The notes under the pieces are model-generated. The model was not told where the DNA came from and made no database searches. It saw only the letters and a program-made list of their open reading frames with translations. The position numbers and the translations under genes were made by a program. From an uncultured Gemmatimonadota bacterium (GTDB taxonomy: Bacteria; 4572-55), in NCBI GenBank assembly GCA_964404765.1, contig CAYOLL010000004.1:1-34314 (forward strand): DNA of 34,314 bases, in the 5' to 3' direction. Below are positions 2,626 through 34,314 of this stretch, piece by piece. The first letter of the stretch is position 1; each line of letters starts with the position of its first letter.

Positions 2626-3489
2626 TTAAAGCAGAAAAGAGTCGATAATCAGCGCAAAAAAAAGCCCGAGCAAATAAACAATAGAATAGCCGAACAACTG
2701 CCAATGCCGGGTCGGTGTGGGATTCTGCCAATCCCGATAGGTTTTGAAGATAAAAAACAGGCCGCACCCGACAGCAACCACCAGATAGAGCAAGCCCGCA
2801 GTCAGATAATAAAGCAGCAGGCTGACGACCACCGTCGCCACGGAATAAAGCCACATTTGGCGCAGAGTAGTTATGTCGCCCTTGATCAATGGCATCATCG
2901 GGTAGCCGACTTCGCGATAATCTTCTTTGTAATATAATGCCAGCGCCCAAAAATGGGGTGGCGTCCACAAAAATATAATAAGAAACAACAAAATTGCCGT
3001 CCAGCTCAATGAATTGGCCGCGGCAGCCCAGGCAATCACCGGACCCATGGCGCCGGCTGCTCCACCGATAACAATATTTTGCGGCGTCGTCGGTTTGAGC
3101 CATAAGGTATAAAAAAAGCTGTAAAACAAGATAGTTCCGACTGCCAACGCCGCGCTAAACCAGTTAAAAGCCATAGCAAAAATAAGTACGCCCGCTACAC
3201 CAATGCCAATCGAGAAAATCAGGGCTTCGTTCGGTAAAATACGCCCGGACGGCAGCGGTCGCTTTGTTCGTGTCCGGCTCATGCGCGCGTCCACGTTACG
3301 CTCAAAATATTGATTCATGGCATTGGCACAACCTCCGGTTAAATACAAGGCGAACAATGCGGCGAAAAACCGAGCCGGGTCGGCGAGCAGACTTTTTTCC
3401 AAAAATAAGGCCGTCATACCGGTTATCACTACCAGCAGCATAATGGACGGCTTGGTTAATTGGAAGCAGGCTTTAATTTTTTTCAACAT
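2626..3489 (-). CDS. ctaB: Protoheme IX farnesyltransferase (heme O synthase), UbiA family
   Basis: A polytopic membrane protein with CyoE/CtaB hallmarks: LTKPSI..LLVV, NQYFERNVDARMSRTRTKRPLPSGRI, and WTPPHFWALAL. Confidence 0.9.
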   Translation of the reverse strand: MLKKIKACFQLTKPSIMLLVVITGMTALFLEKSLLADPARFFAALFALYLTGGCANAMNQYFERNVDARMSRTRTKRPLPSGRILPNEALIFSIGIGVAGVLIFAMAFNWFSAALAVGTILFYSFFYTLWLKPTTPQNIVIGGAAGAMGPVIAWAAAANSLSWTAILLFLIIFLWTPPHFWALALYYKEDYREVGYPMMPLIKGDITTLRQMWLYSVATVVVSLLLYYLTAGLLYLVVAVGCGLFFIFKTYRDWQNPTPTRHWQLFGYSIVYLLGLFFALIIDSFLL

Positions 3490-3667: not shown

Positions 3668-4120
3668 TTATTTCGCTGTTTCCGGTCTAAGCATAGGCCC
3701 GTAGCCCAGGGGCAGACCGCCTAATTCCCGCACATCTTTAAGCGTGTAGCGCTCCGCCCAATCTTTAAAATGCTCCTTTAAGACCGCCCAAAAGCCATGT
3801 AACGGGCATGGCTCGTCCTGATTGCACAGTCCCCAGCCAAACATACAGACCGTAGAGTCTACTTCATAATCCACTGCGTTTAGAATATCAATAAAGCGTA
3901 TCTTGTCTAACGGTTGAGCAAAGGTAAATCCCCCGCCGTGACCTTTCTGCGACAATAAAATACCGCCCGTTACCAACCGCCGCATGATCTTAGACAAGTA
4001 GTGCGACGGAATTTCCGCAATTTTTGACAAATCTTGCGTACGATGCGATACATCGTCCGGTTGCGAGGCCATATAGGCTACTGCCCGCATTGCGTATTCA
4101 GCCGTTTGTGTCAACCGCAT
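3668..4120 (-). CDS. Rrf2-family transcriptional regulator (NsrR/IscR-like, probably Fe-S-binding)
   Basis: MRLTQTAEYAMRAVAYMA is the N-terminal wHTH typical of Rrf2. The three-Cys cluster CMFGWGLCNQDEPCPLH matches the [Fe-S] ligand region of NsrR/IscR. A strong GGAG RBS sits 8 nt before the ATG at 4120. The ORF-track start at 4150 is a TTG; the MRLT start is typical for the family. Confidence 0.85.
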   Translation of the reverse strand: MRLTQTAEYAMRAVAYMASQPDDVSHRTQDLSKIAEIPSHYLSKIMRRLVTGGILLSQKGHGGGFTFAQPLDKIRFIDILNAVDYEVDSTVCMFGWGLCNQDEPCPLHGFWAVLKEHFKDWAERYTLKDVRELGGLPLGYGPMLRPETAK

Positions 4121-4280
4121 ATTGACTCCTTCATTCATTGCCCTCTTCAATTTTCGGCTTGCAGCATGGTGTCACTTTGGACTCCGACATACCGGCATAA
4201 TGGCTTAACCGAAACCCACGTTTTTTGAAAAGCATTGGTATCTTCAATAAAAATATAAAATTTTTTTTAAAAGTCAACTT

Positions 4281-4348
4281 AATAGACTTGACAATCTATT
4301 AAAAATATATAATTTTGGATTTACAAGTCCATAGACATTGAAATCTAT
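4281..4348. promoter_or_regulatory. Two dyad-symmetric sites ATAGA-N8-TCTAT: AATAGACTTGACAATCTATT at 4281-4300 and ATAGACATTGAAATCTAT at 4331-4348. They overlap candidate -35 elements (TTGACA at 4288-4293, TTTACA at 4320-4325).
   Basis: Inverted repeats read in the AT-rich divergent region between the Rrf2 gene and the HCO-like gene. They are positioned as operators over a plus-strand promoter. Confidence 0.4.
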
Positions 4349-4371
4349 TGAAATTTGAAAGGACGGCGACC

Positions 4372-5778
4372 ATGCAAACTTCAACCAAACTGACCGAACA
4401 ATGGCTGCGAATTGCCATCGGTTCCCTGATTCTGGCCGGATTGCTTTCGCTCATTCTGGTGATTGGGCGGATGCCGTATCTTAGCCAATTTATCACCGAC
4501 CCGCAGTTTGCCAAAAAATGCCTGGTGATCCATGTGAACCTGGCCATTTTTGTCTGGTTGTTCTCGTGCCTGACCGCGCTGTTCAACCTGATTCCGGCGG
4601 GCAAGCCGCTTGAGTTCAAAACACACACCGCGCCGGTGGCGATGCTGGGTATCGGTTGCTTTGTGATCAGCGCCGCCTGGCCGGAGGCGATGCCCATCCT
4701 GTCCAACTATATTCCGGCCATTGATCATCCGCTGTTTTTTATCGGCATTGCCCTATTTTCGCTGGCCGTGGCGATCAATTTGGTCGACCGCCGTTTATTT
4801 AGCGGCAGTAACGCCGGACTCCCGACGCATAACGCTACCGCAGGACAGATGAGCCTGAGTCCAGTGACCGTGGACGGTTTGCGCGGGGCGGGTTTGGCCG
4901 GATTACTGGCTTTCGCGGTTATCTTGATTACGGCCTGGCGGATTGACGCTAATTATACGCCAACGATGTACTACGATCTCGTCTTTTGGGGCGGCGGTCA
5001 TGTTATGCAATTTGCCAATATCCTGGGTATGCTGTCGGTCTGGTTGATTTTGCTGGAAGCATCCACCGGCCTGACGCCGATCTCGCAAAAAGCGGCGCGG
5101 GGACTTTTTGGCTGGCTGCTATTGCCGCTACTCTTCACGCCATTTCTGGCCTGGCAGGTTAACACGCCTTTTTATCAGAAAAGTTTTACCCGTCTGATGC
5201 AATGGGGCATATTTCCCGCCGTGTCCATCTTCCTGATCATCTGTCTATATACTGTATATCGCGCCTATCGCACCGGAAGAATAAGCCGCAGCGCCTTCCG
5301 TCATCCGGCGTTCATGGGCTTTGCTGCCAGCGCTGGCCTGACCTTGGTAGGGTTTGGGCTGGGGGCGATGATTCACCGTGTGGATACGCTGATCCCAGCG
5401 CATTATCATGCGGCGATTGGGGCTGTCACTGTGGCTTATATGGCAGTCGCGTATCGGGTGTGGGCGGCGCTGGGTTATCGGATTCAATCGCAGCGGCTGA
5501 CGCAGGCGGCCGGCTGGCAACCGGCGCTGTTTGGCATCGGCCAGGCCGTATTTGCGGTCGGCTTTGGGTTAGCCAAAATGGCCCGCAAGGTATATGGCGA
5601 CGAGCAGATTATACAAACCGCCACGCAACACGCCGGCCTGGTGTTGATGGGAATTGGCGGTTTTATTGCAATTGCCGGTGGAATTACATTTATCTGGATT
5701 ATTGCCGGCCTTATCTATCGCTATGAGCCTGCGACTTCGCATTTTAATTCGGAACTGAAAGTTGTCGTTAAGTCTTAA
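4372..5778 (+). CDS. Heme-copper oxidase subunit I-like membrane protein, a divergent paralog lacking the helix-VII His-His CuB ligands
   Basis: A polytopic TM protein that aligns with the downstream subunit I. It has a helix-II His (LVIHVNLAIFVW), WGGGHVMQF (compare WWGLGHVSQQ), G..MIHRVDTLIPAHYHAAIGAVT (compare GTEQINIIAHNTLRIPGHFHATVVGGS) and GLAKMARKVYGD (compare GSYGVPRRHYDV). It has no HH motif. The ATG is at 4372, after a GGA RBS. Confidence 0.6.
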   Translation: MQTSTKLTEQWLRIAIGSLILAGLLSLILVIGRMPYLSQFITDPQFAKKCLVIHVNLAIFVWLFSCLTALFNLIPAGKPLEFKTHTAPVAMLGIGCFVISAAWPEAMPILSNYIPAIDHPLFFIGIALFSLAVAINLVDRRLFSGSNAGLPTHNATAGQMSLSPVTVDGLRGAGLAGLLAFAVILITAWRIDANYTPTMYYDLVFWGGGHVMQFANILGMLSVWLILLEASTGLTPISQKAARGLFGWLLLPLLFTPFLAWQVNTPFYQKSFTRLMQWGIFPAVSIFLIICLYTVYRAYRTGRISRSAFRHPAFMGFAASAGLTLVGFGLGAMIHRVDTLIPAHYHAAIGAVTVAYMAVAYRVWAALGYRIQSQRLTQAAGWQPALFGIGQAVFAVGFGLAKMARKVYGDEQIIQTATQHAGLVLMGIGGFIAIAGGITFIWIIAGLIYRYEPATSHFNSELKVVVKS

Positions 5779-5824: not shown

Positions 5825-5882
5825 AAAATAAAGGATGTACGCGGAACTAAAATTTTCCTACTCCAAAAAAAAGGAGCGAACT

Positions 5883-6035
5883 ATGGATGAACGTGATGAA
5901 GAAAAAAATCCGCTGCATAAGCTGATGGATAATCCCTGGCTGTTGCTGGTGCTGGGATTAGTGGTGCCGATTTTGTCTTATACCGTCTGGGGTTTGATCG
6001 AGATTATGACAATGCCGCAGGCGCTTTTGCCATAA
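5883..6035 (+). CDS. Small single-TM protein (50 aa), candidate accessory subunit of the oxidase/NOR complex
   Basis: MDERDEEKNPLHKLMDNPWLLLVLGLVVPILSYTVWGLIEIM has one hydrophobic helix. A strong AAGGAG RBS precedes it. It sits between the subunit-I-like and subunit II genes. Confidence 0.5.
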   Translation: MDERDEEKNPLHKLMDNPWLLLVLGLVVPILSYTVWGLIEIMTMPQALLP

Positions 6036-6098: not shown

Positions 6099-6623
6099 AT
6101 GAGTATTTACTCACCCGCGTCGGGCTGGTTTAAGGCGCCCGAAGGCGCCGAACGGCTGTGGATTGGCATCGCTTTAATTTGGTGCTTGATTATGTTTATC
6201 GCCATGCCTTATTGGCATTTTAAAGGGAAACAGAACAGTACCGGCGAGTCATATCGTGTTGATCCGAAAGCGTTTAATGAACGCATCGAAAAATATGTTC
6301 AGACGAATAAAGTTGGCGAAGAATTGGGCATTCCGGTCGTGGAAGCCGCGCCCGGCGGTGATGTTTATCTGCTCGGACAAATGTGGCGCTGGTATCCGAT
6401 TCTGAAGCTAAAAAAAGATCAGACCTATCGACTGCACATCTCGTCCATTGACTTGCAGCATGGCTTTTCGCTGATGCCAATGAACATGAATTTTCAAGTG
6501 CTGCCGGGTTATGACCATGTTTTGACCATCACGCCAACATCAACCGGCATCTTTCCGATTATTTGTAACGAGTTTTGCGGTATCGGTCATCACATGATGA
6601 CTGGCCGGATTATTGTAGAATAA
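6099..6623 (+). CDS. Heme-copper oxidase/NOR subunit II with cupredoxin domain and a complete CuA site
   Basis: An N-terminal TM is followed by a cupredoxin domain. The CuA ligand pattern is H(QHGFS)...C-N-E-F-C-G-I-G-H-H-M-M, i.e. C-x-E-x-C-G-x2-H-x2-M. The 174-aa size resembles ba3-type subunit II. An AGGAGG RBS precedes it. Confidence 0.85.
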   Translation: MSIYSPASGWFKAPEGAERLWIGIALIWCLIMFIAMPYWHFKGKQNSTGESYRVDPKAFNERIEKYVQTNKVGEELGIPVVEAAPGGDVYLLGQMWRWYPILKLKKDQTYRLHISSIDLQHGFSLMPMNMNFQVLPGYDHVLTITPTSTGIFPIICNEFCGIGHHMMTGRIIVE

Positions 6624-6722: not shown

Positions 6723-8435
6723 ATGGGAAATTTTTTACCAAATCAAATGCGTACGTGTGATACGACGCGGCTACCCGTTTGTCTGACGGCGCAGCTATTT
6801 ATCCGCGCTCATGCCGTATTTGCCGTTGTCTATTTACTGGTGGGCGCGATTGCCGCGCTACTATTGGCCTTGACGCGCTGGTCGGCGGTCCATCTGCTGC
6901 CTGCCGATTGGTACTATCGCATTTTGACTTTACACGGTATCAACATGCTGATTTTTTGGATGCTATTTATGGAAGTAGCGATTCTCTATTTTGCCAGCAC
7001 AACGCTGCTTAACTCACGCACTTTTTCCAAACCAATGGGTTGGGTCGGTTTTGTGCTGATGGTTGTAGGCTCGCTCATGACCGATTGGATGATTTTAACC
7101 GGCAAGGGCGATGTATTAATGACCTCATACGTGCCGCTCAAAGCGGATCCGATGTTCTATCTGGGCATCATTTTGGTAGCCGTCGGTGTCTTGCTGGGCA
7201 TTGTTAATTTTTTTGGAACACTCTATATCGCTAAACGGGATCATACTTATACCGGTTCGGTGCCATTAGTCACTTTTGGCGCATTGGCCGCGGCCATTAT
7301 CGGCGTGCTGACCATTTTGCATGGCGCGGCCATCTTGATCCCGACAATGCTCTGGTCAATGGGTTTGATGCCGGTCCCGGACGCGGGCGTTTATCGTCTG
7401 ATCTGGTGGGGACTGGGCCATGTTTCGCAGCAAGTAAATGTCTGTGCGATGGTTTCCGTGTGGTACTTTCTGGCCACGCTGACTGTCGGCGCGCGCCCGC
7501 TAAACGAAACCGTCTGTCGCACGGCTTTTATTCTCTATATTTTATTCATCAACTTAGCTTCGGCGCATCATTTATTGGTCGATCCCGGTGTTGGAGCTAC
7601 CTGGAAAATATGGAACACTTCCTACGCTATGTACCTGGCTGTATTAGCCTCGCTGATTCACGGCTTCACCGTGCCGGCATCGGTCGAAGTGGCCCAGCGC
7701 ATGAAAGGCTACACTCGCGGCATGTTCCAATGGCTGACTTCCGCGCCGTGGGGCGATCCGGGCTTTTCCAGCTTCTTCCTGTCGCTGACAATTTTTGGTT
7801 TTATTGGTGGTATTACCGGAGTGACGCTGGGCACTGAGCAAATTAATATCATTGCTCACAATACGTTGCGTATTCCCGGTCACTTCCATGCCACAGTGGT
7901 CGGCGGCTCAACGCTGGCTTTTATGGGTTTAGCCTACTATGTGGTTCCGCTGATTTTTCAGCGTGAGTTTTATTTAAAGGGCGTTGCTCGGGTGCAGCCG
8001 TACATTTTTGCCGCCGGTATTGTTATGCTGTCATTCGGGATGTCCTTTGCCGGTTCATACGGTGTGCCGCGCCGCCATTATGATGTTGATTTTACCGGGG
8101 CGAATATTCCGGCCGGTTTCGACTCTGCCGCACACTTTATGTTAGGGATTGTCGGTATTGGTGGAACTCTGGCTTTCATTGGGGCATTGATTTTTGTTCT
8201 GCTGGTGGTGGCGGCTGTCTTTTTTGGTAAATCCAATGTCGGTCAGCCCATGTCCGCCTGGCAATCTGCGGATAATCTGAAAATGAACGCCAACGTGCTG
8301 TCCCGGCCAATTGATGAGGCCATTGCGCATAAAGTTCCGGGTACTGTCACTTTAACGCTTGTCTTATTGGTATCTTTTGTGGTATACTATTTTGCTAACT
8401 GGAAAGCGTTGGCAGATGTCTGGTTTGTGCGGTAA
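6723..8435 (+). CDS. Heme-copper oxidase superfamily subunit I (B-family-like; putative NO reductase catalytic subunit)
   Basis: It has 12 or more TM helices with a helix-II His (LHGINMLIFWMLFMEVA), the helix-VI CuB His in WWGLGHVSQQVNV, the helix-VII HH in ASAHHLLVDPG, and the helix-X heme ligands in GHFHATVVGG. The 570-aa size is close to ba3 subunit I. Gln replaces the Tyr of the GHPxVY motif. An AGGAGG RBS precedes it. Confidence 0.9.
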   Translation: MGNFLPNQMRTCDTTRLPVCLTAQLFIRAHAVFAVVYLLVGAIAALLLALTRWSAVHLLPADWYYRILTLHGINMLIFWMLFMEVAILYFASTTLLNSRTFSKPMGWVGFVLMVVGSLMTDWMILTGKGDVLMTSYVPLKADPMFYLGIILVAVGVLLGIVNFFGTLYIAKRDHTYTGSVPLVTFGALAAAIIGVLTILHGAAILIPTMLWSMGLMPVPDAGVYRLIWWGLGHVSQQVNVCAMVSVWYFLATLTVGARPLNETVCRTAFILYILFINLASAHHLLVDPGVGATWKIWNTSYAMYLAVLASLIHGFTVPASVEVAQRMKGYTRGMFQWLTSAPWGDPGFSSFFLSLTIFGFIGGITGVTLGTEQINIIAHNTLRIPGHFHATVVGGSTLAFMGLAYYVVPLIFQREFYLKGVARVQPYIFAAGIVMLSFGMSFAGSYGVPRRHYDVDFTGANIPAGFDSAAHFMLGIVGIGGTLAFIGALIFVLLVVAAVFFGKSNVGQPMSAWQSADNLKMNANVLSRPIDEAIAHKVPGTVTLTLVLLVSFVVYYFANWKALADVWFVR

Positions 8436-8446
8436 ACTTCTAACAT

Positions 8447-8506
8447 GGAGTGCAAAAATAGATTTTTGCAGTGGGAAAAAAGTGCAAAATTAAAATTTTG
8501 CACTCC
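8447..8506. promoter_or_regulatory. Two adjacent copies of the palindromic motif: GGAGTGCAAAAATAGATTTTTGCAGTG at 8447-8473 and AGTGCAAAATTAAAATTTTGCACTCC at 8481-8506 (a perfect 26-bp palindrome)
   Basis: Inverted repeats read directly, 37 to 95 bp upstream of the HiPIP ATG at 8543. Confidence 0.4.
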
Positions 8507-8542
8507 GATACTTTAACCAATTTTAAATGGAGCGAACCAATC

Positions 8543-8893
8543 ATGGAAAACATGATTACCCGGAAAGAGTTTTTGAAAAAACTTGGCCTGATCGGCGTGG
8601 CCGCTTTTGGCGGCAGCACGCTATTAACGGCTTGCAGTAAAGGCGGCGAGCAAAGCGGGGGCGGCGCAGCGGCGGATCCTTGCGCGGATATCAGCGGCTT
8701 GAGCGATGCCGATAAGCAGACCCGCACCCAATTTCAATACGCTACAACGTCCGCCGATCCCAACAAGACCTGTGACAAATGCGCTTTGTGGCAAGGCGTA
8801 ACCGGCAGCGGCCCGTGCGGCGCCTGCCAGGTTGTCAAAGGCCCGATCGCCGTTTTAGGCACTTGCACGGCGTTTGCGGCCAAGCCGGCGTAA
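8543..8893 (+). CDS. High-potential iron-sulfur protein (HiPIP), lipoprotein-anchored
   Basis: The signal peptide has a lipobox (GSTLLTAC). The mature domain, TQFQYATTSADPNKTCDKCALWQG....GPCGACQVVKGPIAVLGTCTAF, matches the HiPIP four-Cys pattern C-x2-C...C...G-x-C with conserved aromatics. Confidence 0.7.
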   Translation: MENMITRKEFLKKLGLIGVAAFGGSTLLTACSKGGEQSGGGAAADPCADISGLSDADKQTRTQFQYATTSADPNKTCDKCALWQGVTGSGPCGACQVVKGPIAVLGTCTAFAAKPA

Positions 8894-8956: not shown

Positions 8957-9044
8957 TCTGTGAATTCGAGACTCGGTCAAAATTTTTTAATCAGTTTAGT
9001 GATAAATGGATATATTTTTCCTTTATCTGCAAAGCGAGGCTCCT

Positions 9045-9992
9045 ATGAAAATCATCGAAAATATACAGCAATTCCTGATTGGCTGGCGCTTTCCGGTGAT
9101 GATGGTGTCCATGCTGCTTTTTTTCAGCCTGGAGTTATTTATTGTCCTGTTGATTCCGGCTTCGAGCGGGGCGGCGGCACAGTTTGCCGAAGATTTTAAA
9201 ACCTGGTGTTTTGGCTATGACCCGGCTACGGGTAAACTGGAATGGGGTTATGTGATTATGTTTCTGATTCAGCCCTTGATGATGTGTGGCGTAATCATCA
9301 TGGTTTGGATCAAGCCGCTCAAGGAAGTCTGGCAAGATCGTCCGACTCAGACGGTGCCGTATCTGGTCAGTTCGGCTACGATTGTGCTGGCCCTGGGTGT
9401 AAGCCTGACGCTGATGGTTGGCGCGGATGCCCGCGCTGCCGATGAGCAATTGCCTTTTCCGGCTGAGGCGCTGCGCACGGAACTAAACCCGATCCCATTT
9501 TCGCTGATGAATCAGGATAGCGCCGTTGTGAGCCTGGAATCGTTAAAAGGCCGGGTGACGCTGATTACGGCAGTTTACGCCCGCTGTGGCTATACGTGCC
9601 CGATGATTTTGGCGCAAACGCGTCGGGTGATGAGCTCCCTGACGCCACAGGAATTGAAAGAGCTTTCGATTCTGGGCATCACGCTCGATCCGGAGCATGA
9701 CGATGTCGCCGTGCTGCGGGAAATGGCCGCCGGTCAACAAGTCAAGACGCCGCTGTTCCATTTTCTAACCGGCGAATCAGCCTATGTTAACCAAACCCTT
9801 GATATGTATGGTTTTGCCCGCAAGCGCAATCCGGAAACCGGGGTGATCGACCACGCCAATCTTTTTTTATTAATTGATCGGCAGGGCAAAATCGCTTATC
9901 GCTTTTCGATTGGCAAACGGCAGGAAGATTGGCTGGTTCACGCCATACGCATGTTGATTAAAGAAAAAAAGGGTTCGGGTGTCGCGGCATGA
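9045..9992 (+). CDS. SCO1/SenC-family copper chaperone with an N-terminal polytopic membrane extension
   Basis: The C-terminal thioredoxin-like domain carries YARCGYTCP (the CxxxC copper site) and a downstream DHANLFLLIDRQG (conserved His). The N-terminal 140 aa contains 3 to 4 hydrophobic helices. A GAGG RBS precedes it. Confidence 0.8.
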   Translation: MKIIENIQQFLIGWRFPVMMVSMLLFFSLELFIVLLIPASSGAAAQFAEDFKTWCFGYDPATGKLEWGYVIMFLIQPLMMCGVIIMVWIKPLKEVWQDRPTQTVPYLVSSATIVLALGVSLTLMVGADARAADEQLPFPAEALRTELNPIPFSLMNQDSAVVSLESLKGRVTLITAVYARCGYTCPMILAQTRRVMSSLTPQELKELSILGITLDPEHDDVAVLREMAAGQQVKTPLFHFLTGESAYVNQTLDMYGFARKRNPETGVIDHANLFLLIDRQGKIAYRFSIGKRQEDWLVHAIRMLIKEKKGSGVAA

Positions 9993-10053
9993 CCTGAAAA
10001 ACTCGTGACAGGCCACAAAGGCACGAAAACACTAAGTTTCACGAAGTTTGTTA

Positions 10054-12207
10054 ATGTTTTATGTCTTCAGCGCTTATGTTTGTGAACAATTCACCCGGAA
10101 AATTATGCGCCCACGCCCCATCATTACCCATGAGGATATACCACAACTAAATGCAACGCATGTGCGTGATGCCCGGTCCGAACCACCGGTGCGTGGCGAA
10201 GCTCTGCTGACCCAATTAGATATGCAGTTTACCCGGCTAAACCGATGGGTTAAGGCTGTCGTCCCTGATGCACTTAATCCGTTTACGCAGATGGGCGCCG
10301 TGGCGGATACGATGTTTATCGTTGCCATTATTAGTGGTATCTTGCTGTTGTTTTGGTATAAGGCCAGCGTGTTTCAGGCCTATGATTCGTTAGAAGCGAT
10401 GCGGCATAATTGGCCGGCGCAGTTAGTGCGCTCAATCCATCGTTATAGTTCGGACGGTTGTTTGCTCTTTGTCATTTTACATGCATTGCAAATTCTGGGA
10501 GCACGCAAGTTTGGCGGTGTGCGCTGGCTGGCCTGGGTTTCCGGTGTGGCGCTGGTCTGGCTGTTATGGGTAGATGGCTGGACGGGTTATTGGCTGGTTT
10601 GGGACGTGTCGGCGCAGCAAGTAGCGCTTGGCACCGCGAAATGGTTAGATGTGCTGCCGATTTTTGCCGACCCTTTATCACGTTCTTTTTTAACTGACGA
10701 CAGCGTCAATTCGTTATTCTTTTTTGTGGTGTTTTTTATCCACATGCTGCTGCCGCTGGTCATGGGTGTGGCGTTGTGGATTCACATTATGCGCTTAAAT
10801 GATTCGCATTTTCTGACCAATCGCAAGTTGACCGGCATTTTGCTTACGGCGCTGGTAATGGTTTCGCTTCTCTTTCCGGCTCTATCGGCTGAACAAGCGG
10901 CCATGCAAATCGCGCCACAATCTTTCAAGATGGATTGGTTTTATTTATTACCGCTGATTGTGACGGATCGTTTACATGGCGGTGGTTTGTGGTTAGTTAC
11001 CGTCATTTTTACGGTTGCTTTTTTTAGTGTGCCGTGGGCTATGGCCCGACAACGATCCGCGCCGGCAAAGGTCAATCCGGAACGCTGTCACGGCTGCACA
11101 CAGTGTTTTCAGGATTGTCCATTTAACGCGATTACGATGCGCCCGCGTGATGGTAAGCATCCGGTTGTATCCTATATTGATCCGGATAAGTGCGTGGGCT
11201 GCGGCGTGTGCGTCGGCTCGTGCGATCCCTGGGCAATTGAGTTTGATGCCCTGCGGCAGATGGATGTGCGCAAATGGATTCGTCAGCGGCTCAAGATCGA
11301 AACTGCTGATCCGCGTCACGTTGCTTTTGTTTGCGCCGATTCTGCCGGGGCGGATTTACAACTGAATGCCGCCGGGGAGTGCGCTGAATTGACTGGCTAT
11401 CGAATCGTGCCTGTGCCGTGTGTAAGCTGGCTGTTTGCGCCCATGATCGCGCAAGTATTGCGGGCCGGTGTGCCGGGGGTGATGGTTGTGGGTTGCGGAC
11501 CAAACGAAATTTGTCGTAAAGGCAACCGTTGGACGGCCGAACGTCTGGCTGGAACCCGCGAGCCTTATTTACTGATGACACCTTCTGCGGCCGCAGATCA
11601 TGATGAAAGTGATCTGGTTGGGCGGATTCGATATATACGCTACGATCGATCGCAGAAGGCGGAATTTATTGCCGACGCGCAGGATTTTCGGGCCGGAAAA
11701 GTGACTGCGCCAAAAGTGTCCGCCCGGCGTTGGGCAAACGTGGTGGTTATTTTTCTTATCTTAGCTGGGGCGATCATTACATTGAGTCGCATGCCCTATC
11801 GTCCGCCACAGTTGGAAACCGCGGAATTAGTGATCTCTTTCAAACATCCGGGGCAGTTGGTCGAGCAGGTTACGGCTTCCGCTGCCGATCAACAAAATAT
11901 ATTGCCGCACATGCGTGGCGGCGCCTCTAAAAAGAGGTTACGTACGGCGGTTCGTTTGCAGGTATTCGTCGATGGCGCAGAAAAAGTCAATCAAACACTG
12001 GCTCCACGCGGTCTATTTAGCGATGGCGCTAGCATTGCCATTGAAAAAATACCGCTATTGGAAGGTCGCCATCTGGTTAAAGTGCGAGTAGGCGATTCGG
12101 CTAATCCGGATGAATGGCAATTTTCTGATTCGCGCGAGCTGGATTTTAAAATAGCAACGCGACGTGTAGTTTTGTTCAGCAAATCGGCGGGATTTAAATG
12201 GTATTGA
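10054..12207 (+). CDS. Multi-domain membrane electron-transfer protein: di-heme cytochrome b (N-terminal), 2x[4Fe-4S] ferredoxin, an MvhD/FlpD-like domain, a TM helix and a C-terminal about 150-aa domain
   Basis: Two H-x13-H pairs in TM helices ([16 protein letters not shown] and [16 protein letters not shown]) match the cytochrome b heme bL/bH ligands, alongside an R..H..A...F motif. [12 protein letters not shown] and [12 protein letters not shown] are two 4Fe-4S motifs. [10 protein letters not shown] ... [37 protein letters not shown] resembles the methyl-viologen-reducing hydrogenase delta subunit domain. The start is uncertain: the ATG at 10054 and the ATG at 10105 both lack a clear SD, and the TTG at 10048 is also possible. 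Confidence 0.7.
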
Positions 12208-12359
12208 TCAAATAGATTTGCACAAGTTTCAAATTTTAGCGCACTTGCGTGCTAATAATGGACATGTAAGTCTATTATTATATTTTGTTTGCTACTTTAA
12301 TTCACAACGCGAGTTTGTGAGCTCGCACAATATCAATCTAAGGGAAGGAGTACGGGTTA

Positions 12360-13846
12360 TGGGAACAAAAAAGGGGTTGTTTTTCGGAACAGCGATGGTG
12401 ATTTTGACGCTTTCGTTATCGCTTATTTACTCATGTAATGAGCAGCAATCGGCACAATCAAAGTCAAGTGGGAGTAGCAGTAAAGCAGACAATGGGCTCG
12501 TTAAGTTGGAGCCGGTGGCCGTACAAGGCGAGGAAGTGGCAGTCTTAACCGATCCACCGATGGTGCCGCCACCGATTACGCGCACCAATGCGACAAAAGT
12601 GATTGTCAATCTGGAGGTTATTGAAAAAACAATGCGGATTGCCGACGGAGTGATGTATACTTTTTGGACATTCGGCGGGACGGTGCCTGGCAAGTTTATC
12701 CGCGTGCGTGAAGGCGATTTTGTAGAGTTTCACCTGAAAAATCATCCGGAAAATAAGTTGCCGCATAATATTGACTTACATGCGGTTACGGGACCTGGCG
12801 GCGGCGCAGCCTCCTCATTTACTGCCCCGGGGCACGAGTCGGTCTTTTCGTTTACGGCGATGAACCGCGGCTTGTATGTCTATCACTGCGCGACGGCGCC
12901 GGTAGGTATGCATGTGGCCAACGGCATGTATGGCTTGATCTATGTTCAGCCAAAGGAAGGCTTGCCGCCGGTTGACAAAGAATACTATGTTTTCCAAAGC
13001 GATTTTTACACCAAAGGCGCGTATGGCGCAGCCGGTCTGCAACCCTTCAGCATGGAGAAAGCTTTGCAGGAACTGCCGGATTATGTGGTTTTTAACGGCT
13101 CCGTCGGTTCGACAACCGGCGATAAGGCGATGACCGCCAAAGTCGGCGATAAAGTGCGCCTTTTTGTTGGCAATGGCGGCCCGAATATGGTCTCTTCCTT
13201 CCACGTTATTGGCGAAATTTTTGATAATGTTTATGAAGAAGGCGGCGATCGGGTTAATCATAACGTGCAGACAACAATGGTTCCGGCGGGCGGCTCGACG
13301 ATCACCGAATTTGTGTGTGAAGTGCCGGGCACGTTTATCCTGGTTGACCATTCCATTTTCCGGGCGTTTAACAAAGGCGCTATCGCGATGCTAAAAGTCG
13401 AAGGCGCTGAAAATAAAACGATCTACTCCGGTAAGCAGGATGATCGTATCTATCAAGGTGAAGGTTCTGCGGTGCAGGAAATGCCGGGGGGAGCTGTTGT
13501 CGAAGCGCCCGCAGCCAAGACCAAAGAGGAGCGTATGGAGCGCGGACAAAATGTGTATAAATCCATTTGCATTGCCTGCCATCAGGCCGAAGGTCAGGGT
13601 ATGCCGGGCGCATTCCCGCCATTGGCCGGTTCGGACTTCCTGAATGCTGACAAGAACCGCGCCATCAAGACGGTAATGAACGGCTTGGAAGGTAAGGTGA
13701 CGGTTAACGGCGCGGATTACAACGGCATCATGCCCAAGCTGAACCTGACAGATGAAGATATTGCCAATGTTGTTACCTATGTGCTGAATAGCTGGGGCAA
13801 TAGCGGCGGCGAGATTACGCGAGATGATGTGAAGAAACTGCGGTAG
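12360..13846 (+). CDS. nirK: Copper-containing nitrite reductase (NirK) with C-terminal mono-heme cytochrome c domain, lipoprotein
   Basis: The lipobox is LSLSLIYSC. The type-1/type-2 Cu ligand motifs are [13 protein letters not shown] and [18 protein letters not shown]. The two-cupredoxin length fits NirK. The C-terminal [19 protein letters not shown] is a CxxCH heme c site. A GGAAGGAG RBS precedes it. The ORF-track start at 12218 is a TTG far upstream. Confidence 0.9.
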
Positions 13847-21405: not shown

Positions 21406-23394
21406 TTAACGCAACAACACAGTTCGCGCAGTCATCAAGCCGGCGTTTGTTTGCAAGCTCCAAAAATAAATACCATTAGCCAGTTGACGATTATCCTGTG
21501 ACTGTCCATTCCAGGACAGATTATGCTCGCCGGGTGAAAGCAGTTCTTGGTCAAGAATCGTGCGCACCATGCGACCGGCGCTGTCATAAATCCGCACGGT
21601 TGCCGTTGAAGCCGCCGGCAAGTAAAAAGCCAGCGTGGTTTGATCGGAAAACGGATTCGGATGGCTTGCTTGCAAACTCGGGCGGGCGGCCGCATTTTCA
21701 ACAAATACATCGTGCTCGGGTGATTGCCAATTGCGTCCATCGGCAAAGAGCGCTTCTATAAAATAGCGATAGGCAAAGCCGGATGACGGGTGATCTTCAT
21801 ACATGACGGTTGTTGGCGCTAAAATCGGTGATATGCCAGAATAATCTGCCGCGGGACCAATGCCTTGCCGATGAACACGAATGCCGGTAATATGGGTCAA
21901 ATCCGACAACTGCCAGGCAAGCTTGACGCCCGGACCATTCATCTGCGCCTGAAAAGAGAGCAATGTTAAAGCGGCTACGCGCTGATAGTTTATCGCCGCC
22001 ACGACATCAATGATACCCCAGCCGAGCAGCGTATCCGGGTGGGTGGCCTGGCTGGCGGTCATCATCAGCGCTTCGCGGATTTGCATCATCGTCCAATCGG
22101 GATGGGCTTGCAAAAGCTGGGCGGCGCAGCCGGCCACTAACGGCGACGACAAAGACGTTCCGCTAAGATTATAATAGCCAATTGCACTGCGGGCGCGGGC
22201 GCAGCGCGTACTAACGCCACGAGCCATAACCTCCGGTTTAAGCCGGCCGTCGGCGGTTACCCCGTCAGAGTTGAAACTCGCCCTGGCGCCGGTTGCATCG
22301 ACCGCTCCAACGGTTAAGATGCTGTCGGCATCGGCCGGCGCGCCCAGAAACGGGTGGGTCGGGTCGCCGCCGCTATTACCCAGCGAGACGCAGATGACGA
22401 CGCCAAGACCGGCGGCAATATCGGCGGCGCGGGTGATCGGCGCAGTATCGCCGTCCATTTGCGCATAAGTATACCAGTCCAGGTAGCTCAACGAGCTATT
22501 GGCCACATCTGTGCCCAGGCCTTCCGCCCATTCAATGGCCGCAATCCAGTAATCTTCTTCAACCGGTGTTTCGTTGGGTAAGTCCTCGGTTTTGGCCAGA
22601 ATGAAGTGGGCTTTATAGGCCGGACCGATGAGCTTTCCGTCGGCATAACCACCCAAAGTTGACCAGGTCGCCGTGCCATGATCGTGTTGACCGCTCACAT
22701 CGTTGGCCTCATTTTGCACATTGCCGTCATTGAAAATAAAATCATGCTGCGCCAGTAAACGCCCTTCGCTGAGAATGGCGGCAAAGGATTCGTGGGTCAG
22801 ATTGTAGCCCGTATCAAGCATCGTAACAATCACCCCAGCGCCGTTATAACCAAGCCGATGGGCATTGACGGCATTGATCTGATTCAGTTGGTCAAATGAC
22901 AGGCCGTAGTTTAAATCTGCCGGCGTGGCCATGACTTCAGCAGGTGTTTCCACTAATTCCGGCCGTTTGAAGCCCAATACCGGCTGAATGCGGCTGACAA
23001 AGGGCAGAGCGGCGATTTGAGCCAATTGCTCCCGGGTTGTTACCAGGCTGATGGCATTTAACCACTTACTGGTTTGGACTATCCTTGCGCCGGTTCCAGC
23101 CAACCGTGCCGAATAATCCGCCGCCACCGGCAGGTCAAGCTGCGAAACACCCGGCTTTTGACCGCGTTTATGCCGTCGTTCAATCGCGCGATCAGTCAGA
23201 CCTAATTCGGCTAACGACATTGTGGCAGCGCTCGCTTGGGCATTTTCTGTGCTCTTGTCCGTTAAAAAAACCCAGACTTTCAGCTCTGACTGACCCGTCA
23301 GACGTTCATAAACCCGGCTGTCGATTTTTGACGCCATGCCGGATGAAACCCAGCCCAGAATGGCAATAAGAACGGCTGCTACTGTAATTCGCAT
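21406..23394 (-). CDS. Subtilisin-family (S8) serine peptidase with C-terminal T9SS sorting domain
   Basis: It has a signal peptide. The catalytic triad motifs are VIVTMLDTGYN (Asp), HDHGTATWS (His) and LSGTSLSSPLVAGCAA (Ser). The C-terminal NPFSDQTTLAFYLP...VRIYDSAGRMVRTI...WNGQ..ANGIYFWSL... is a T9SS type-A sorting domain. Confidence 0.85.
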   Translation of the reverse strand: MRITVAAVLIAILGWVSSGMASKIDSRVYERLTGQSELKVWVFLTDKSTENAQASAATMSLAELGLTDRAIERRHKRGQKPGVSQLDLPVAADYSARLAGTGARIVQTSKWLNAISLVTTREQLAQIAALPFVSRIQPVLGFKRPELVETPAEVMATPADLNYGLSFDQLNQINAVNAHRLGYNGAGVIVTMLDTGYNLTHESFAAILSEGRLLAQHDFIFNDGNVQNEANDVSGQHDHGTATWSTLGGYADGKLIGPAYKAHFILAKTEDLPNETPVEEDYWIAAIEWAEGLGTDVANSSLSYLDWYTYAQMDGDTAPITRAADIAAGLGVVICVSLGNSGGDPTHPFLGAPADADSILTVGAVDATGARASFNSDGVTADGRLKPEVMARGVSTRCARARSAIGYYNLSGTSLSSPLVAGCAAQLLQAHPDWTMMQIREALMMTASQATHPDTLLGWGIIDVVAAINYQRVAALTLLSFQAQMNGPGVKLAWQLSDLTHITGIRVHRQGIGPAADYSGISPILAPTTVMYEDHPSSGFAYRYFIEALFADGRNWQSPEHDVFVENAAARPSLQASHPNPFSDQTTLAFYLPAASTATVRIYDSAGRMVRTILDQELLSPGEHNLSWNGQSQDNRQLANGIYFWSLQTNAGLMTARTVLLR

Positions 23395-27330: not shown

Positions 27331-27987
27331 TTATGACAAAACATCTTCTACTTTGATTGAAAATCCTTCCAACAATTTCGATGGCACTGCCGGCTTGCCT
27401 GGACCGACCTGGCTTGCAAACAACTCATAAGCGCCGTCGGTCAGTGCATAAACTTCTATCGCCTGCCAAGCCGGATCGATAATCCAATATTCCTTGACGC
27501 CGAATTTCTGATACAAAGCCATCTTCGTGTTGCGATCTCGCTGGATGGATGACGGGGAAATAATTTCGACGATCAAATCCGGCGCACCGACAATGCCGTG
27601 CGGGGCAATAATCGAACGATTGGCTTCGGCGATAAACACAATGTCCGGCTGGATCGTGTTTTCGTCGGATAAGATTACGTCAATGGGCGCGTGAAACACT
27701 TGTCCCGATTTATTCATCCGCACTAATTGGGCGAGACGCAATAATACATTTAACGAGGCGTTTTGATGATCCGTTGATGGCGCAGACATAGCAATTAACT
27801 CCCCATTTATGATTTCATAACGCTTGTCATCCGGCAGGGTCAAATAGTCGGTGTACGTCCATCTTTTGGTGGGGACGAACGGCTTTGCCGGCGCAACAAC
27901 CGCAGGCTTATTGAGATATGGCGCGGGCGCTTTCTTTTTCCGTGCTTTTGCCGTCGGGGAAACGGCGGCTTGTTCCAAAATTGCCAT
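27331..27987 (-). CDS. Uma2-family (DUF820) putative PD-(D/E)xK endonuclease with Lys/Pro/Ala-rich N-terminal tail (copy A)
   Basis: YEIINGELIAMSAPSTDHQ...HAPIDVILSDENTIQPDIVFIAEAN...GAPDLIVEIISPSS...KMALYQKFGVKEYWIIDP...IEVYAL matches the Uma2 family. The N-terminal AKARKKKAPAPYLNKPAVVAPAKPFVPTKR tail is unusual. A GGAGG RBS precedes it. Confidence 0.8.
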   Translation of the reverse strand: MAILEQAAVSPTAKARKKKAPAPYLNKPAVVAPAKPFVPTKRWTYTDYLTLPDDKRYEIINGELIAMSAPSTDHQNASLNVLLRLAQLVRMNKSGQVFHAPIDVILSDENTIQPDIVFIAEANRSIIAPHGIVGAPDLIVEIISPSSIQRDRNTKMALYQKFGVKEYWIIDPAWQAIEVYALTDGAYELFASQVGPGKPAVPSKLLEGFSIKVEDVLS

Positions 27988-27996
27988 AACAACCTC

Positions 27997-28656
27997 CTAC
28001 ACCGTCAGAACATCTTCTACTTTGACTGAGAAACCGTCCAACAACTTCGACGGCACTGCCGGCTTGCCGGCACCGATCGCGCTTGCAAATAATGTATAAA
28101 CGCCGTCTGTCAACGCATAAATCTCGACGACCTGCCAGGCCGGATCGATGATCCAGTATTCCTTGACGCCAAATTTTTCGTACAAAGCCATTTTCGTGCG
28201 GTGATCGCGTTGAATCGATGATGGGGAAATAATTTCGACGATCAAATCCGGCGCGCCGACAATGCCATGCGGGGCAATAATCGACCGATTGGCCTCGGCA
28301 ATAAACACAATGTCCGGCTGCACGGTATTTTCGTCAGACAAAATTACGTCAGTTGGCGCGAGAAAACTTTCTCCGACAGGCTGATTCGCTAAATACTTAT
28401 CCATTACGCGGTGTAACTTTCCCAGACACCGTTGATGATCCGTTGATGGCGCAGCCATAGTCATTAACTCCCCGTTTATAATTTCATAACGCTTGTCATC
28501 CGGCAAAGTCAAATAGTCGGTATACGTCCATCTTTTGGTGGGGACGAACGGCTTTACCGGCGCAACAACCGCAGGCTTATTGAGATATGGCGCGGGCGCT
28601 TTCTTTTTCCGTGCTTTTGCCGTCGGGGAAACGGCGGCTTGTTCCAAAATTGCCAT
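27997..28656 (-). CDS. Uma2-family (DUF820) putative endonuclease with the same basic N-terminal tail (copy B, tandem paralog)
   Basis: It is nearly identical to copy A at the N and C termini (first 32 aa identical) and divergent in the central region (HQRCLGKLHRVMDKYLANQPVGESF versus HQNASLNVLLRLAQLVRMNKSGQVF). Its GGAGG RBS is identical. The two form a roughly 660-bp tandem duplication. Confidence 0.8.
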   Translation of the reverse strand: MAILEQAAVSPTAKARKKKAPAPYLNKPAVVAPVKPFVPTKRWTYTDYLTLPDDKRYEIINGELMTMAAPSTDHQRCLGKLHRVMDKYLANQPVGESFLAPTDVILSDENTVQPDIVFIAEANRSIIAPHGIVGAPDLIVEIISPSSIQRDHRTKMALYEKFGVKEYWIIDPAWQVVEIYALTDGVYTLFASAIGAGKPAVPSKLLDGFSVKVEDVLTV

Positions 28657-32275: not shown

Positions 32276-33610
32276 TTAGCGCATCAATACCATACGTCGG
32301 GTTTCGATAGGTTTGCCATTAACCGACATTGCGTAGAAGTAGATGCCGCTGCCGGTTGGATCGCCCGCGTCATCCCGACCGTCCCAGGTTAGGCTATGCC
32401 GACCTTCCGCCAATGAATTGTCAACCAACGTGCGAATCCATTGACCGGCGGCATTATAAATGCGGATAACAACTTTTTGCGATTTTGGTAATGTCCAGGA
32501 AATGTTCGTCGATTGGGTAAAAGGGTTGGGATAGTTTTGGGTCAGTCGGGATGGCGAAGCCTGATTTTCCGGATCATCGGTTTCAATATTCAGCGGGTCG
32601 GCATAACGGAAGATGCGCCCGTTTTTGCAGCCAATCCAGAGCTGATCCGGGCCAAACACGGCAAAACCGGTCGCTTCCGCCGGCACAGTAAAGCGGCTTT
32701 GCCACGAGCGGCCCAAATCGCCGCTGAAATAAAATACAGTGCTGCCGTCAGTGACATGATACGCCCAACCGTTCCGGGCATTGTGAAATTGCCAGGAGCC
32801 GGGCAGAATAGCCGTGTCTGAAGTAATTTGAGTGGTGTCCCACGAAGCGCCGCCGTCTTGCGTTGTCAACAGCCAGATATTCGCTGCGCGTAAGAGGCCG
32901 GTTTGCTCGTCAAAAATATGGGCGTATTGGAAGGGTTCGAGCAATTTGTCAAGAAAATAACTGGCCATGAAAGTGATCCCCTTTGAGCTCCAAAGCCTAT
33001 CATTATTAAAGCGTGGGTCATTCGCATCCCAATATCGCTCGATTAACCAAATTAAATCCGGGGAACTGAAATCCCAGAAAGGAACATTCAAACCGGTATC
33101 AATGCCCCAATGATCTAAACCAAGCGAATAGTTCCAAGTTTTTCCTCCATCTCGTGTTTGGAGCAGGAACTCTATGCCACCGGGTTGACCGCCGCCGGCT
33201 CGTCCAATGCCAAACCAGCCGTTTTGCGCATCAAAAAATCGCGGCGGTTCTGCAAGATATTCTGTATAAACCTGGCTTGTATCCAGCAGATAGGAAGCAG
33301 TAGTCCAGGTTAAACCGTGGTCGGATGTGTAATTAAAGTAAACATTTGGACGGACATAATGCCAGATCCAGGCTTCGCTATCGGAAATTGCGTCAAAATC
33401 TCCTATCGCCAACGGCATCCAAGAAATGCCGGAATCGACGGTGTGATAGGTCTGATCGCTGCAAATCCAAACCGTTTGGGTCGAAAAGCCCTCAATTTTG
33501 GCAATATGGGCGGTGGTCGGCGATTGGATTTCCACCAGCGTGGGAACAGCCAATAAACAGGCCGGAAATTGGACAAACAGGCTGATGACAAGCATAAGCA
33601 AATTCTTCAT
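32276..33610 (-). CDS. Secreted BNR/Asp-box repeat protein with C-terminal T9SS sorting domain
   Basis: The signal peptide MKNLLMLVISLFVQFPACLLA is followed by four S/T-x-D-x-G-x-T/S-W Asp-box-like motifs (SDHGLTW, TRDGGKTW, TQDGGASW, SGDLGRSW). The C-terminal YPNPFTQSTNISW...VVIRIYNAAGQWIRTL...WDGRDDAGDPTGSGIYFYAM is a T9SS sorting domain. The ORF-track ATG at 33724 would overlap the upstream gene and lacks a signal peptide. Confidence 0.75.
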   Translation of the reverse strand: MKNLLMLVISLFVQFPACLLAVPTLVEIQSPTTAHIAKIEGFSTQTVWICSDQTYHTVDSGISWMPLAIGDFDAISDSEAWIWHYVRPNVYFNYTSDHGLTWTTASYLLDTSQVYTEYLAEPPRFFDAQNGWFGIGRAGGGQPGGIEFLLQTRDGGKTWNYSLGLDHWGIDTGLNVPFWDFSSPDLIWLIERYWDANDPRFNNDRLWSSKGITFMASYFLDKLLEPFQYAHIFDEQTGLLRAANIWLLTTQDGGASWDTTQITSDTAILPGSWQFHNARNGWAYHVTDGSTVFYFSGDLGRSWQSRFTVPAEATGFAVFGPDQLWIGCKNGRIFRYADPLNIETDDPENQASPSRLTQNYPNPFTQSTNISWTLPKSQKVVIRIYNAAGQWIRTLVDNSLAEGRHSLTWDGRDDAGDPTGSGIYFYAMSVNGKPIETRRMVLMR

Positions 33611-33677
33611 AAAAGCTCTTTCACTCCAAGATAGACCGACAAATATTCTATTCCTCCAAAACTCCACCACTCCGGCC

Positions 33678-34314
33678 CTAAAAACCATAAGCTTTGCGTC
33701 TTGCAACTCCCGCCGAAAAGCCATGTCCGCGCAACGTCATTTTGGGCAGTTTATCGGCTAATTCACGGTACGCGGCGCGGCTGACGGCGCGGCGTTCGCG
33801 GGTCAGGGTATGCCAGATGCCGGCTTCGTTACTCCAGGCTTGCGGCCACAGCGGCGTCGGATCGGGTTTGGGCGGCTGACGGCGCGGGGTGTAACGGCGC
33901 TGCTTCAGCGTCGTGGCCATTTCGCGGAAAATGCCGGGCCCGTAATGGTCATACCACAACAGCGTGTGGGCGGTGGACAGCGCGCCGGCCCAGGGATACC
34001 AGTGCAGCCACCAGCGGTCGCTCAGGCGGCCAAGTTCGTCGTCGATTCGGTCCCGCTCGCGGTCGGTTTTGGCCGGGCGTTGCTCGGTGTAAAATAAGCC
34101 GCTTTGGAAATCGTCACCGGCCACATGCCACGTTTCGCCGATGCCGTATTTTTCCGGGTGAAGGGCCACATCCGCACCGTGAGTCAGGCCGAATTGCCCG
34201 CAGATGAATAAGGCGATATGTTGATGATAATCGTGCAGAAATTGAATCGTGGCGCGCGCTTCTGCACAAGTTTCAGTCGGGAAGTCGGTAAAGCACATGG
34301 CTTCCACGGCAATG
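33678..34314 (-). CDS. Hypothetical protein, N-terminally truncated by the window edge (the listed start at 34307 is a GTG and the frame is open to the edge)
   Basis: A long minus-strand ORF with no recognised motifs: ...FLHDYHQHIALFICGQFGLTHGADVALHPEKYGIGETWHVAGDD... Confidence 0.45.
   Translation of the reverse strand, partial: IAVEAMCFTDFPTETCAEARATIQFLHDYHQHIALFICGQFGLTHGADVALHPEKYGIGETWHVAGDDFQSGLFYTEQRPAKTDRERDRIDDELGRLSDRWWLHWYPWAGALSTAHTLLWYDHYGPGIFREMATTLKQRRYTPRRQPPKPDPTPLWPQAWSNEAGIWHTLTRERRAVSRAAYRELADKLPKMTLRGHGFSAGVARRKAYGF

Follow-up and report, generated by a model that had tools for sequence, protein, structure and literature searches.

The eNOR family of heme-copper nitric oxide (NO) reductases was reportedly proposed in 2008 by Hemp and Gennis. 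Here we describe a locus that very probably encodes a member of this family. It lies on a stretch of 34,314 nucleotides (the window) from an uncultured Gemmatimonadota bacterium (NCBI GenBank assembly GCA_964404765.1, contig CAYOLL010000004.1, positions 1 to 34,314 of the forward strand), and its central element is the gene at 6723..8435 on the + strand, which encodes the catalytic subunit with the heme and non-heme-metal sites (subunit I).

NO reductase (NOR)-type families are distinguished by the residue at the column of the tyrosine that is cross-linked to histidine in O2 reductases, as a preceding reading of the window from its letters alone (the sequence-only reading) had stated and as Table A4 of PMC8756737, after Hemp and Gennis 2008, lists: Tyr in O2 reductases, Glu in cNOR and qNOR, Asn in sNOR and CuANOR (bNOR), Gln in eNOR, and Asp in gNOR. 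Gln at this column is the feature by which eNOR sequences are recognized (PMC8756737, Fig. 6 legend). The eNOR, sNOR, nNOR, and gNOR families descend from the B family, have CuA-type second subunits, and were found to contain no migrated tyrosine (Murali et al., PNAS 2024, PMC11214002). The same study reports that a ba3-like K channel including Ser309 is kept in eNOR and bNOR, that Ser309 is absent from sNOR, that the low-spin heme has His and Lys as its ligands in some eNORs, and that bNOR occurs in Bacillales only. The eNOR purified from Rhodothermus marinus (DSM 4252) reduced NO at 0.68 per second but left O2 unreduced with each of the donors offered (PMC11214002). An eNOR operon from Ferrigenium comprises sco1 and the genes for subunit II, subunit I, heme o synthase, and a protein whose function is unknown; the organism also has cytochrome b/iron-sulfur (Fe-S) proteins (2026 Ferrigenium preprint).

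Subunit I carries glutamine at the column of the cross-linked tyrosine

Subunit I consists of 570 amino acids from ATG to stop and matches Pfam COX1 with an E value of 3e-64. The sequence-only reading had noticed a Gln four residues after a metal-binding His in helix VI, at the place taken by the cross-linked Tyr in oxidases of the A and B families, and this observation held in two alignments. In a HMMER pairwise alignment with Thermus thermophilus ba3 oxidase, Q237 fell into the column of the cross-linked Tyr237, with GHVSQQV facing GHPIVYF without a gap (ba3 wwtGHPIVYFwllpay, subunit I wwglGHVSQQVnvcam); Q237 occupied the Tyr column also in a MAFFT alignment of 46 sequences. The helix VI signature H233-V-S-Q236-Q237-V-N239 is encoded at 7419..7439 on the + strand, as supported by translation, the ba3 alignment, and its invariance among homologs. 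Positions 7407-7445 translate as WGLGHVSQQVNVC, with codons at 7419-7421 (H233), 7428-7430 (Q236), 7431-7433 (Q237), and 7437-7439 (N239).

The HMMER alignment also placed H72, H233, Y237, H282, H283, H384, and H386 of ba3 opposite H71, H233, Q237, H282, H283, H387, and H389 of subunit I, and the heme-propionate Arg pair R449/R450 opposite R450/R451. All six canonical His are thus retained. The sequence-only reading had reported that all three CuB His and both heme His were kept, which is correct in substance, except that the canonical set comprises three B-site and three heme His. From their alignment, H71 and H389 are the predicted ligands of the low-spin heme, H387 that of the high-spin heme, and H233, H282, and H283 those of the B-site metal. 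Since all metal-binding His, including the three of the B site, are kept, subunit I is not gNOR-like, in agreement with what had been proposed from the sequence.

Structure prediction was consistent with a B-family fold. The AlphaFold2 model (predicted local distance difference test [pLDDT], 86.3; predicted template modeling score, 0.89) shows residues 221-255 as one continuous helix, and the top Foldseek matches were ba3 oxidases with template modeling (TM) scores of 0.77-0.79. In a sequence search of the Protein Data Bank (PDB), the best solved relatives were B-family oxidases (E values of 6e-45 to 1e-40), with 6e-45 for Aquifex 7DEG, about 6e-41 for Thermus ba3, and only 7e-6 for the A family; none of the cbb3, cNOR, or qNOR chains matched subunit I at E <= 0.01. 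Sequence and Foldseek searches retrieved no eNOR structure from the PDB. The K-type channel residues Y248, S310, and T316 are present in subunit I according to the ba3 alignment, in which S310 corresponds to the Ser309 channel position, and all three are invariant in an alignment of 35 sequences. E322 had been considered as an extra metal ligand and was dropped because the 46-sequence alignment revealed its conservation in B-family oxidases as well. A protein 100% identical to subunit I is already in NCBI, encoded on a contig of 85.8 kb, and public records label it "cbb3-type cytochrome c oxidase subunit I."

The Gln-Gln proteins form a large and conserved clade

A protein search with subunit I returned at least 7,970 clusters at E < 1e-10. 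The motif GHx[S/A]QQ[V/I]N, the HH pair, and GHFH were found in all of the top 120 homologs (68-78% identity). When 151 homologs were considered, 31 of them beyond the first 120, QQ-x-N was present in each of the 144 readable motifs. H233, Q236, Q237, and N239 were invariant in the 35-sequence alignment, as were Y248 and Y272, and the active-site residues were identical throughout the Gln-Gln clade in the 46-sequence alignment. The Gln at the cross-link column is a family signature and not a one-off.

A neighbor-joining tree of the 46 sequences with 200 bootstrap replicates recovered the Gln-Gln group as monophyletic in 198 replicates and the close relatives of subunit I as a cluster in all 200. 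The clade was separate from the GHPxVYFW B-family oxidases. Sequences with a GHxxQY motif adjoined the Gln-Gln group, the joint group being recovered in only 113 of the replicates, and did not form a supported clade on their own. These neighbors fix the register of helix VI because they have Tyr where the second Gln stands in subunit I. The sequence-only reading had allowed for two findings that would overturn it, namely, a shifted register of helix VI and a helix VII Tyr of the C-family type. The cross-link column contains no Tyr, with the GHxxQY neighbors as calibration, and Ile stands six residues ahead of the HH pair in 150 of 150 homologs, which at the level of sequence argues that such a Tyr is absent. 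We take this latter position to be the one at which cbb3 carries its tyrosine (Pseudomonas stutzeri structure).

An exhaustive search against 50%-identity representatives returned a single representative for the cluster of subunit I itself (69% identity), followed by further Gln-Gln proteins (42-46%), the GHxxQY set (41-45%), and GHPxVYFW B-type proteins (~30%). The sub-clade of subunit I is ~46-50% identical to the Gln-Gln members from thermophiles. A tblastn search of plasmids detected GH..QQ.N in plasmid-borne relatives of Defluviimonas, Thermomicrobium roseum, and Thermus thermophilus; in the last of these proteins, helix X reads GHFK, the His/Lys variant reported for eNOR. This eNOR-like gene (GHGAQQVN, GHFK) of Thermus megaplasmids is located at 7004-8689 of locus L083 (T. 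thermophilus plasmid pTthSNM6-6b) and also occurs on nine other Thermus plasmids. It adjoins genes for a multicopper oxidase, cytochrome P460, and an Rrf2 protein. When the plasmid search was aimed at sNOR-type references, it returned only Tyr-bearing B-type oxidases besides the eNOR-like genes of Defluviimonas, Thermomicrobium, and Thermus.

Two sets of proteins encoded outside the window were also noticed. Four neighbors of the Gln-Gln proteins in the tree (P0123, P0126, P0128, and P0149) have GHxxQY, with the Tyr kept and the first Gln and the Asn already present; eNOR may have arisen from such O2-reducing relatives, which are possibly the "K family" that reportedly clusters with it. Five oxidase-like proteins of 550 amino acids (P0170, P0171, P0192, P0249, and P0255) show H-x-x-H-Y in helix VI, whereas the HH pair is replaced by Y-H and the H-x-H of helix X by Y-x-H; this may reflect either an artefact of the alignment or a separate family.

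Assignment of subunit I to the eNOR family

Considering these data, we assign subunit I to the eNOR family, with a probability of about 0.87. It has Gln at the Tyr column, the three B-site His together with the heme His, B-family relatives along with a CuA-type subunit II, and K-channel-like residues that include the Ser309 position, and its sequence shows no Tyr of the C-family type. The assignment draws on the published diagnostic residue, the elimination of other families, the Ser309 criterion, and agreement of the operon, and it was made from the published features of the characterized R. marinus enzyme and of sNOR, bNOR, gNOR, and nNOR. As for the other families, the three B-site His and a complete CuA site in subunit II set the protein apart from gNOR; the Gln, the predicted low-spin ligands H71 and H389, and the lack of cNOR or qNOR matches set it apart from nNOR, cNOR, and qNOR. 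The sequence-only reading had left undecided whether the Gln variant belongs to a described clade or marks a distinct one. The data point to the former, given that Gln is the published diagnostic of eNOR and that the operon matches, and a distinct clade found no support. Subunit I falls deep within a Gln-Gln clade that is very large and highly conserved, its operon matches that of Ferrigenium, and it is an ordinary, misannotated member of a known family; the observation of the Gln was correct but not new.

Several points weigh against this assignment. Three positions of the ba3 K path are changed according to the HMMER alignment (T312 to H313, S261 to N261, and Y244 to V244). R. marinus was found neither among the best 80 genome loci, of which the weakest is ~64% identical, nor among the best 120 matches of a profile made of Rhodothermales and Balneolales sequences. 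Activity has been measured for one eNOR only, and its turnover of 0.68 NO per second is low (PMC11214002); the published text consulted names no metal for the eNOR B site. Heme As in both sites are a further mark of eNOR. Adjoining the operon, heme o synthase is the only heme-pathway gene, and a profile search of the proteins of the window detected no CtaA homolog.

The operon and its neighboring genes

We compared gene context across the best 80 related genome loci, which come from about a dozen phyla and range from 77% to ~64% identity. On the + strand, the window encodes, in this order, an oxidase-fold membrane protein of 476 amino acids (M476), a 66-amino-acid open reading frame (ORF), subunit II, subunit I, a HiPIP-type protein, SCO, a cytochrome b/Fe-S fusion, and a NirK-cytochrome c fusion. 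The core gene order was conserved across the related loci, with subunit II kept in 79, M476 and SCO in 77 each, the cytochrome b fusion in 76, the small ORF in 69, a divergent Rrf2 gene at the same position in 41, heme o synthase in 28, nirK in 5, and the HiPIP gene in none.

Subunit II (6099..6623, + strand) is a membrane-anchored cupredoxin of 174 amino acids that matches Pfam COX2 and has a complete CuA site, H...C-x3-C-x3-H-x2-M. Its match to ba3 subunit II in the PDB (1.7e-11) aligns HGF and CnxfCgxgHxxM, and thereby all CuA ligands. The preceding 66-amino-acid ORF (5835..6035, + strand) has one predicted membrane helix and was matched by tblastn at the corresponding site of 69 of the 80 loci. 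It retrieved no family from Pfam or NCBIfam and, by analogy with subunit IIa of ba3, may be a small extra subunit.

The gene that follows subunit I (8543..8893, + strand) encodes a [4Fe-4S] protein of the HiPIP type that carries a signal peptide and the lipobox LLTAC. It matched the HiPIP in PDB entry 3h31 at 5.6e-13 and Pfam HIPIP below the cutoff; 3H31 is presumably the R. marinus HiPIP. Among the loci compared, only the window has this insertion between the subunit I and SCO genes, and the lipoprotein could be the periplasmic electron donor to CuA in the source organism. The SCO1/SenC copper chaperone (9006..9992, + strand; Pfam SCO1-SenC, 2e-21) has an N-terminal membrane extension, is encoded downstream of subunit I in the 77 loci that keep it, and probably assembles CuA.

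The next gene (10048..12207, + strand) encodes a protein of 719 amino acids in which a cytochrome b (Pfam Cytochrome_B, 3.9e-17) is fused to two [4Fe-4S] ferredoxin motifs (Fer4) and an FlpD-MvhD-like part (FlpD). Its C-terminal domain of ~200 amino acids contains one membrane helix and has no family assignment. The fusion is a candidate quinol-linked electron module. Its Fe-S part should face the cytoplasm because this part lacks a signal peptide, and a cytoplasmic location would be odd for a donor to periplasmic CuA. Directly downstream of the operon, nirK (12218..13846, + strand) encodes a copper nitrite reductase (TIGR02376, 355.9 bits with a cutoff of 296.3) fused to a C-terminal cytochrome c (Pfam Cytochrom_C, residues 441-526); among the related loci, nirK was nearby in only the 5 mentioned above.

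On the - strand, the heme o synthase gene (CyoE/CtaB; 2626..3489; NF003349, 306.9 bits with a cutoff of 246) has counterparts not only near subunit I in 28 of the 80 loci but also in the eNOR clusters of Defluviimonas, Thermomicrobium, and Ferrigenium. The enzyme catalyzes the first step towards the heme a derivative used by eNOR. Downstream of it on the same strand, an acidic, apparently soluble protein of 628 amino acids (607-2493) retrieved no Pfam or NCBIfam match and was seen in none of the 80 related loci. Farther away, the - strand ORFs at 21406-23394, 32276-33724, and 27331-28656 mark two proteins with type IX secretion C-terminal sorting domains and two tandem genes for Uma2-family endonucleases. 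The sorting domains suggest that the host belongs to the Bacteroidota/FCB group.

M476 is a second protein with the oxidase fold

The gene at the head of the operon, M476 (4348..5778, + strand; likely true start at ATG 4372), encodes a membrane protein with the fold of heme-copper oxidase subunit I. It is a full-length paralog of subunit I, with 23% identity over 490 amino acids in BLASTP (6e-16). Its AlphaFold2 model (pLDDT 90.4) had a ba3 oxidase as the best Foldseek match (TM scores of 0.72-0.74), and no sequence match was found in Pfam, NCBIfam, or the PDB. M476 lies upstream of the eNOR genes in each of the 77 related loci that contain it. In an analysis of 59 sequences, H62, H218, Q221, H352, H354, R413, and K414 were kept in >=95%, with H218 located in GGGHVMQF and H352 and H354 in H352-Y-H354. 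The three heme-ligand His and one B-site His are thus kept, and the helix VII His-His pair is absent. M476 could therefore bind two hemes, as both the oxidase fold and the heme ligands are retained. Public records list it as "hypothetical" or, mislabeled, as cytochrome oxidase, and it possibly corresponds to the "scaffold protein of unknown function" named in the Ferrigenium preprint.

M476 and the cytochrome b fusion mark the loci of the sub-clade of subunit I and are not carried by the Thermus and Thermomicrobium loci. A speculative and on balance rather unlikely proposal is that the functional unit is a six-gene module (M476, the 66-amino-acid peptide, subunits II and I, SCO, and the cytochrome b/2x[4Fe-4S]/MvhD-like fusion) rather than an eNOR of two subunits. 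M476 and the fusion would then make up a supercomplex for NO reduction that is linked to quinol or ferredoxin and has not been described before, or else a scaffold dedicated to heme insertion. Both roles would be unprecedented for a protein with the heme-copper fold.

An Rrf2-family regulator and a candidate operator

Divergently from M476, the window encodes an Rrf2-family regulator (3668..4150, - strand; Pfam Rrf2, 1.5e-26; TIGR00738 above cutoff) with the cluster motif C-x6-C-x5-C-x2-H, which is a candidate NO-responsive repressor of the NsrR type. The spacer between the two genes contains two copies of the palindrome ATAGA-N8-TCTAT (4282-4299 and 4331-4348), the only two matches in the window, in which 0.00 were expected. 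Balneolales and Rhodothermales loci have paired boxes in the corresponding place. In Fodinibius halophilus (L045), where the boxes are located at 1940-1957, 5727-5744, and 5760-5777, the third copy precedes the nirK ATG by 27 bp, and in one Balneolaceae metagenome-assembled genome a copy is likewise found just upstream of nirK. Boxes were also observed in loci L025, L049, L053, L056, L061, L063, L066, L073, L001, and L031. Since the boxes are common to the eNOR operon and nirK, a shared nitrogen-oxide (NsrR-like) regulon with ATAGA-N8-TCTAT as candidate operator is suggested.

Alternative explanations

The gene order initially brought an sNOR of the ammonia-oxidizer kind to mind. We then considered in general that subunit I might be an sNOR- or bNOR-type reductase with Asn239 as the family residue, which we regard as very improbable. 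The invariance of N239, two residues after Gln237, would agree with it, as would the SCO gene after subunit I, with the order II, I, senC recalling the norSY-senC arrangement of ammonia oxidizers. However, both independent alignments place Gln and not Asn at the Tyr column, in the register fixed by the GHxxQY neighbors, and N239 is aligned with W239 of ba3, off that column. SCO is likewise a stated part of eNOR operons (Ferrigenium preprint), and the Ser309 channel residue, reportedly absent from sNOR, is retained in subunit I as the invariant S310; the initial guess was rejected on the active-site column and on Ser309. As for bNOR, it has been reported only in Bacillales, whereas the window contains type IX secretion sorting domains, which are typical of the Bacteroidota group. 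There is an equally slim chance that subunit I is still an O2 reductase, either an unusual B-type enzyme without the His-Tyr cofactor or one that recruits Y272 of helix VII or Y248 of helix VI. Its B-family-like sequence and fold, the CuA subunit, the invariance of Y248 and Y272, and the name cytochrome c oxidase in public records are in line with this idea. However, GHVSQQV stands in place of GHPxVY, the C-family tyrosine position is Ile in all 150 homologs, Y248 is present in ba3 as well, where it is a channel residue, and Y272 is aligned with a Phe of ba3, ten residues before H282. Moreover, Murali et al. detected no migrated tyrosine in these families, the R. marinus enzyme did not reduce O2 (PMC11214002), and the gene adjoins nirK and an Rrf2 regulator.

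It is also highly unlikely, in our view, that subunit I is a member of the Gln-Gln clade with another chemistry, such as NO dismutation, N2O reduction, or NO sensing, or that it is active only in a larger complex with M476 and the cytochrome b/Fe-S fusion. A single eNOR has been assayed, with low turnover, and the sub-clade of subunit I is at the above-mentioned distance of ~46-50% identity from the thermophile members; M476 and the fusion always occur in this sub-clade, unlike in the Thermus and Thermomicrobium loci. Against a different chemistry stand the identity of the active-site residues across the whole clade, a published assignment that covers the entire family, and the link to nirK, which is what an NO consumer would show. 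Taken together, these data leave a CuA-dependent NO reductase as the best-supported reading of the locus.

Proposed mechanism

We observed the residues and the fold, conservation throughout the family, the clade, and the gene context; from these we infer how such an NO reductase might work, including the role of the Gln, the uptake of protons, the electron donor, the identity of the B-site metal, and the regulation. By analogy with the R. marinus enzyme, the one family member for which activity was shown, subunit I would reduce NO. NirK would produce NO directly beside the eNOR operon and so supply the substrate, and a periplasmic carrier, either the HiPIP lipoprotein or a c-type cytochrome, would pass electrons to the CuA of subunit II. 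They would then move via the low-spin heme (H71/H389) to a binuclear site composed of the high-spin heme (H387) and a non-heme metal held by H233, H282, and H283, where the predicted reaction is 2 NO + 2 e- + 2 H+ -> N2O + H2O. The His-Tyr cofactor would be dispensable, as NO reduction needs only two electrons. Conversely, Gln237 in place of Tyr would remove the donor of the fourth electron needed to split O2, a loss that follows from oxidase chemistry once the Tyr is gone (PMC11214002).

Q236 and Q237 probably contribute their amides to the lining of the pocket and to hydrogen bonding or protonation of bound NO or hyponitrite. Both residues would be located at the top of the retained K-type proton path (Y248, S310, H313, T316, and N261), and proton uptake from the cytoplasm would render NO reduction electrogenic. 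SCO would load CuA, heme o synthase would feed the synthesis of a heme a-type cofactor, and the divergent Rrf2 protein would control the operon through the ATAGA-N8-TCTAT boxes.

Enzymes of the eNOR type produce N2O, a greenhouse gas, and are common in metagenomes, where they are routinely mislabeled as cytochrome oxidases; their recognition would therefore correct predictions of which organisms denitrify. The locus introduces no new principle and is a clean example in which one operon combines nirK, a HiPIP gene, a candidate operator that would respond to NO, and another protein with the oxidase fold. It could help to direct studies of expression and structure in a family without a solved structure.

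Comparison with known systems

The most distant of the systems compared are cNOR and qNOR (class of 3O0R and 3AYF). They would share the overall reaction with subunit I and likewise have a polar residue instead of Tyr four positions after the helix VI His. However, this residue is Glu and serves as a fourth FeB ligand, and these enzymes are of C-family origin, have no cytoplasmic proton channel, and contain a cytochrome c subunit or a fused quinol domain; as reported above, no sequence match links them to subunit I. sNOR and bNOR (qCuANOR) are closer, being B-family-derived NO reductases that have CuA subunits and no Tyr, and sNOR clusters also carry senC/SCO. They differ from subunit I in the Asn at the active-site column, in the loss of Ser309 in sNOR, and in the confinement of bNOR to Bacillales.

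The B-family oxidases, represented by ba3 (1EHK/3S8F) and the Aquifex aeolicus enzyme (7DEG), share with the locus the fold (TM scores of 0.77-0.79), the six His, R450/R451, a CuA subunit II, and Y248, S310, and T316. Identity is ~23-26%, and Tyr237 is replaced by Gln, V236 by Gln, W239 by Asn, T312 by His, and S261 by Asn. The closest agreement was obtained with the eNOR family, which has the same Gln at the Tyr column, three His for the B-site metal and another three for the hemes, a B-family origin, a CuA subunit II encoded just upstream, a K-type channel in which the Ser309 position is kept, and the same mislabeling as cytochrome oxidase in public records. Its operon likewise includes genes for a cytochrome b/Fe-S protein, SCO, and heme o synthase. 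No defining feature separates the locus from this family, to which the window adds a HiPIP gene between subunit I and SCO that none of the 80 loci has and, immediately beside the operon, a gene for a NirK-cytochrome c fusion.

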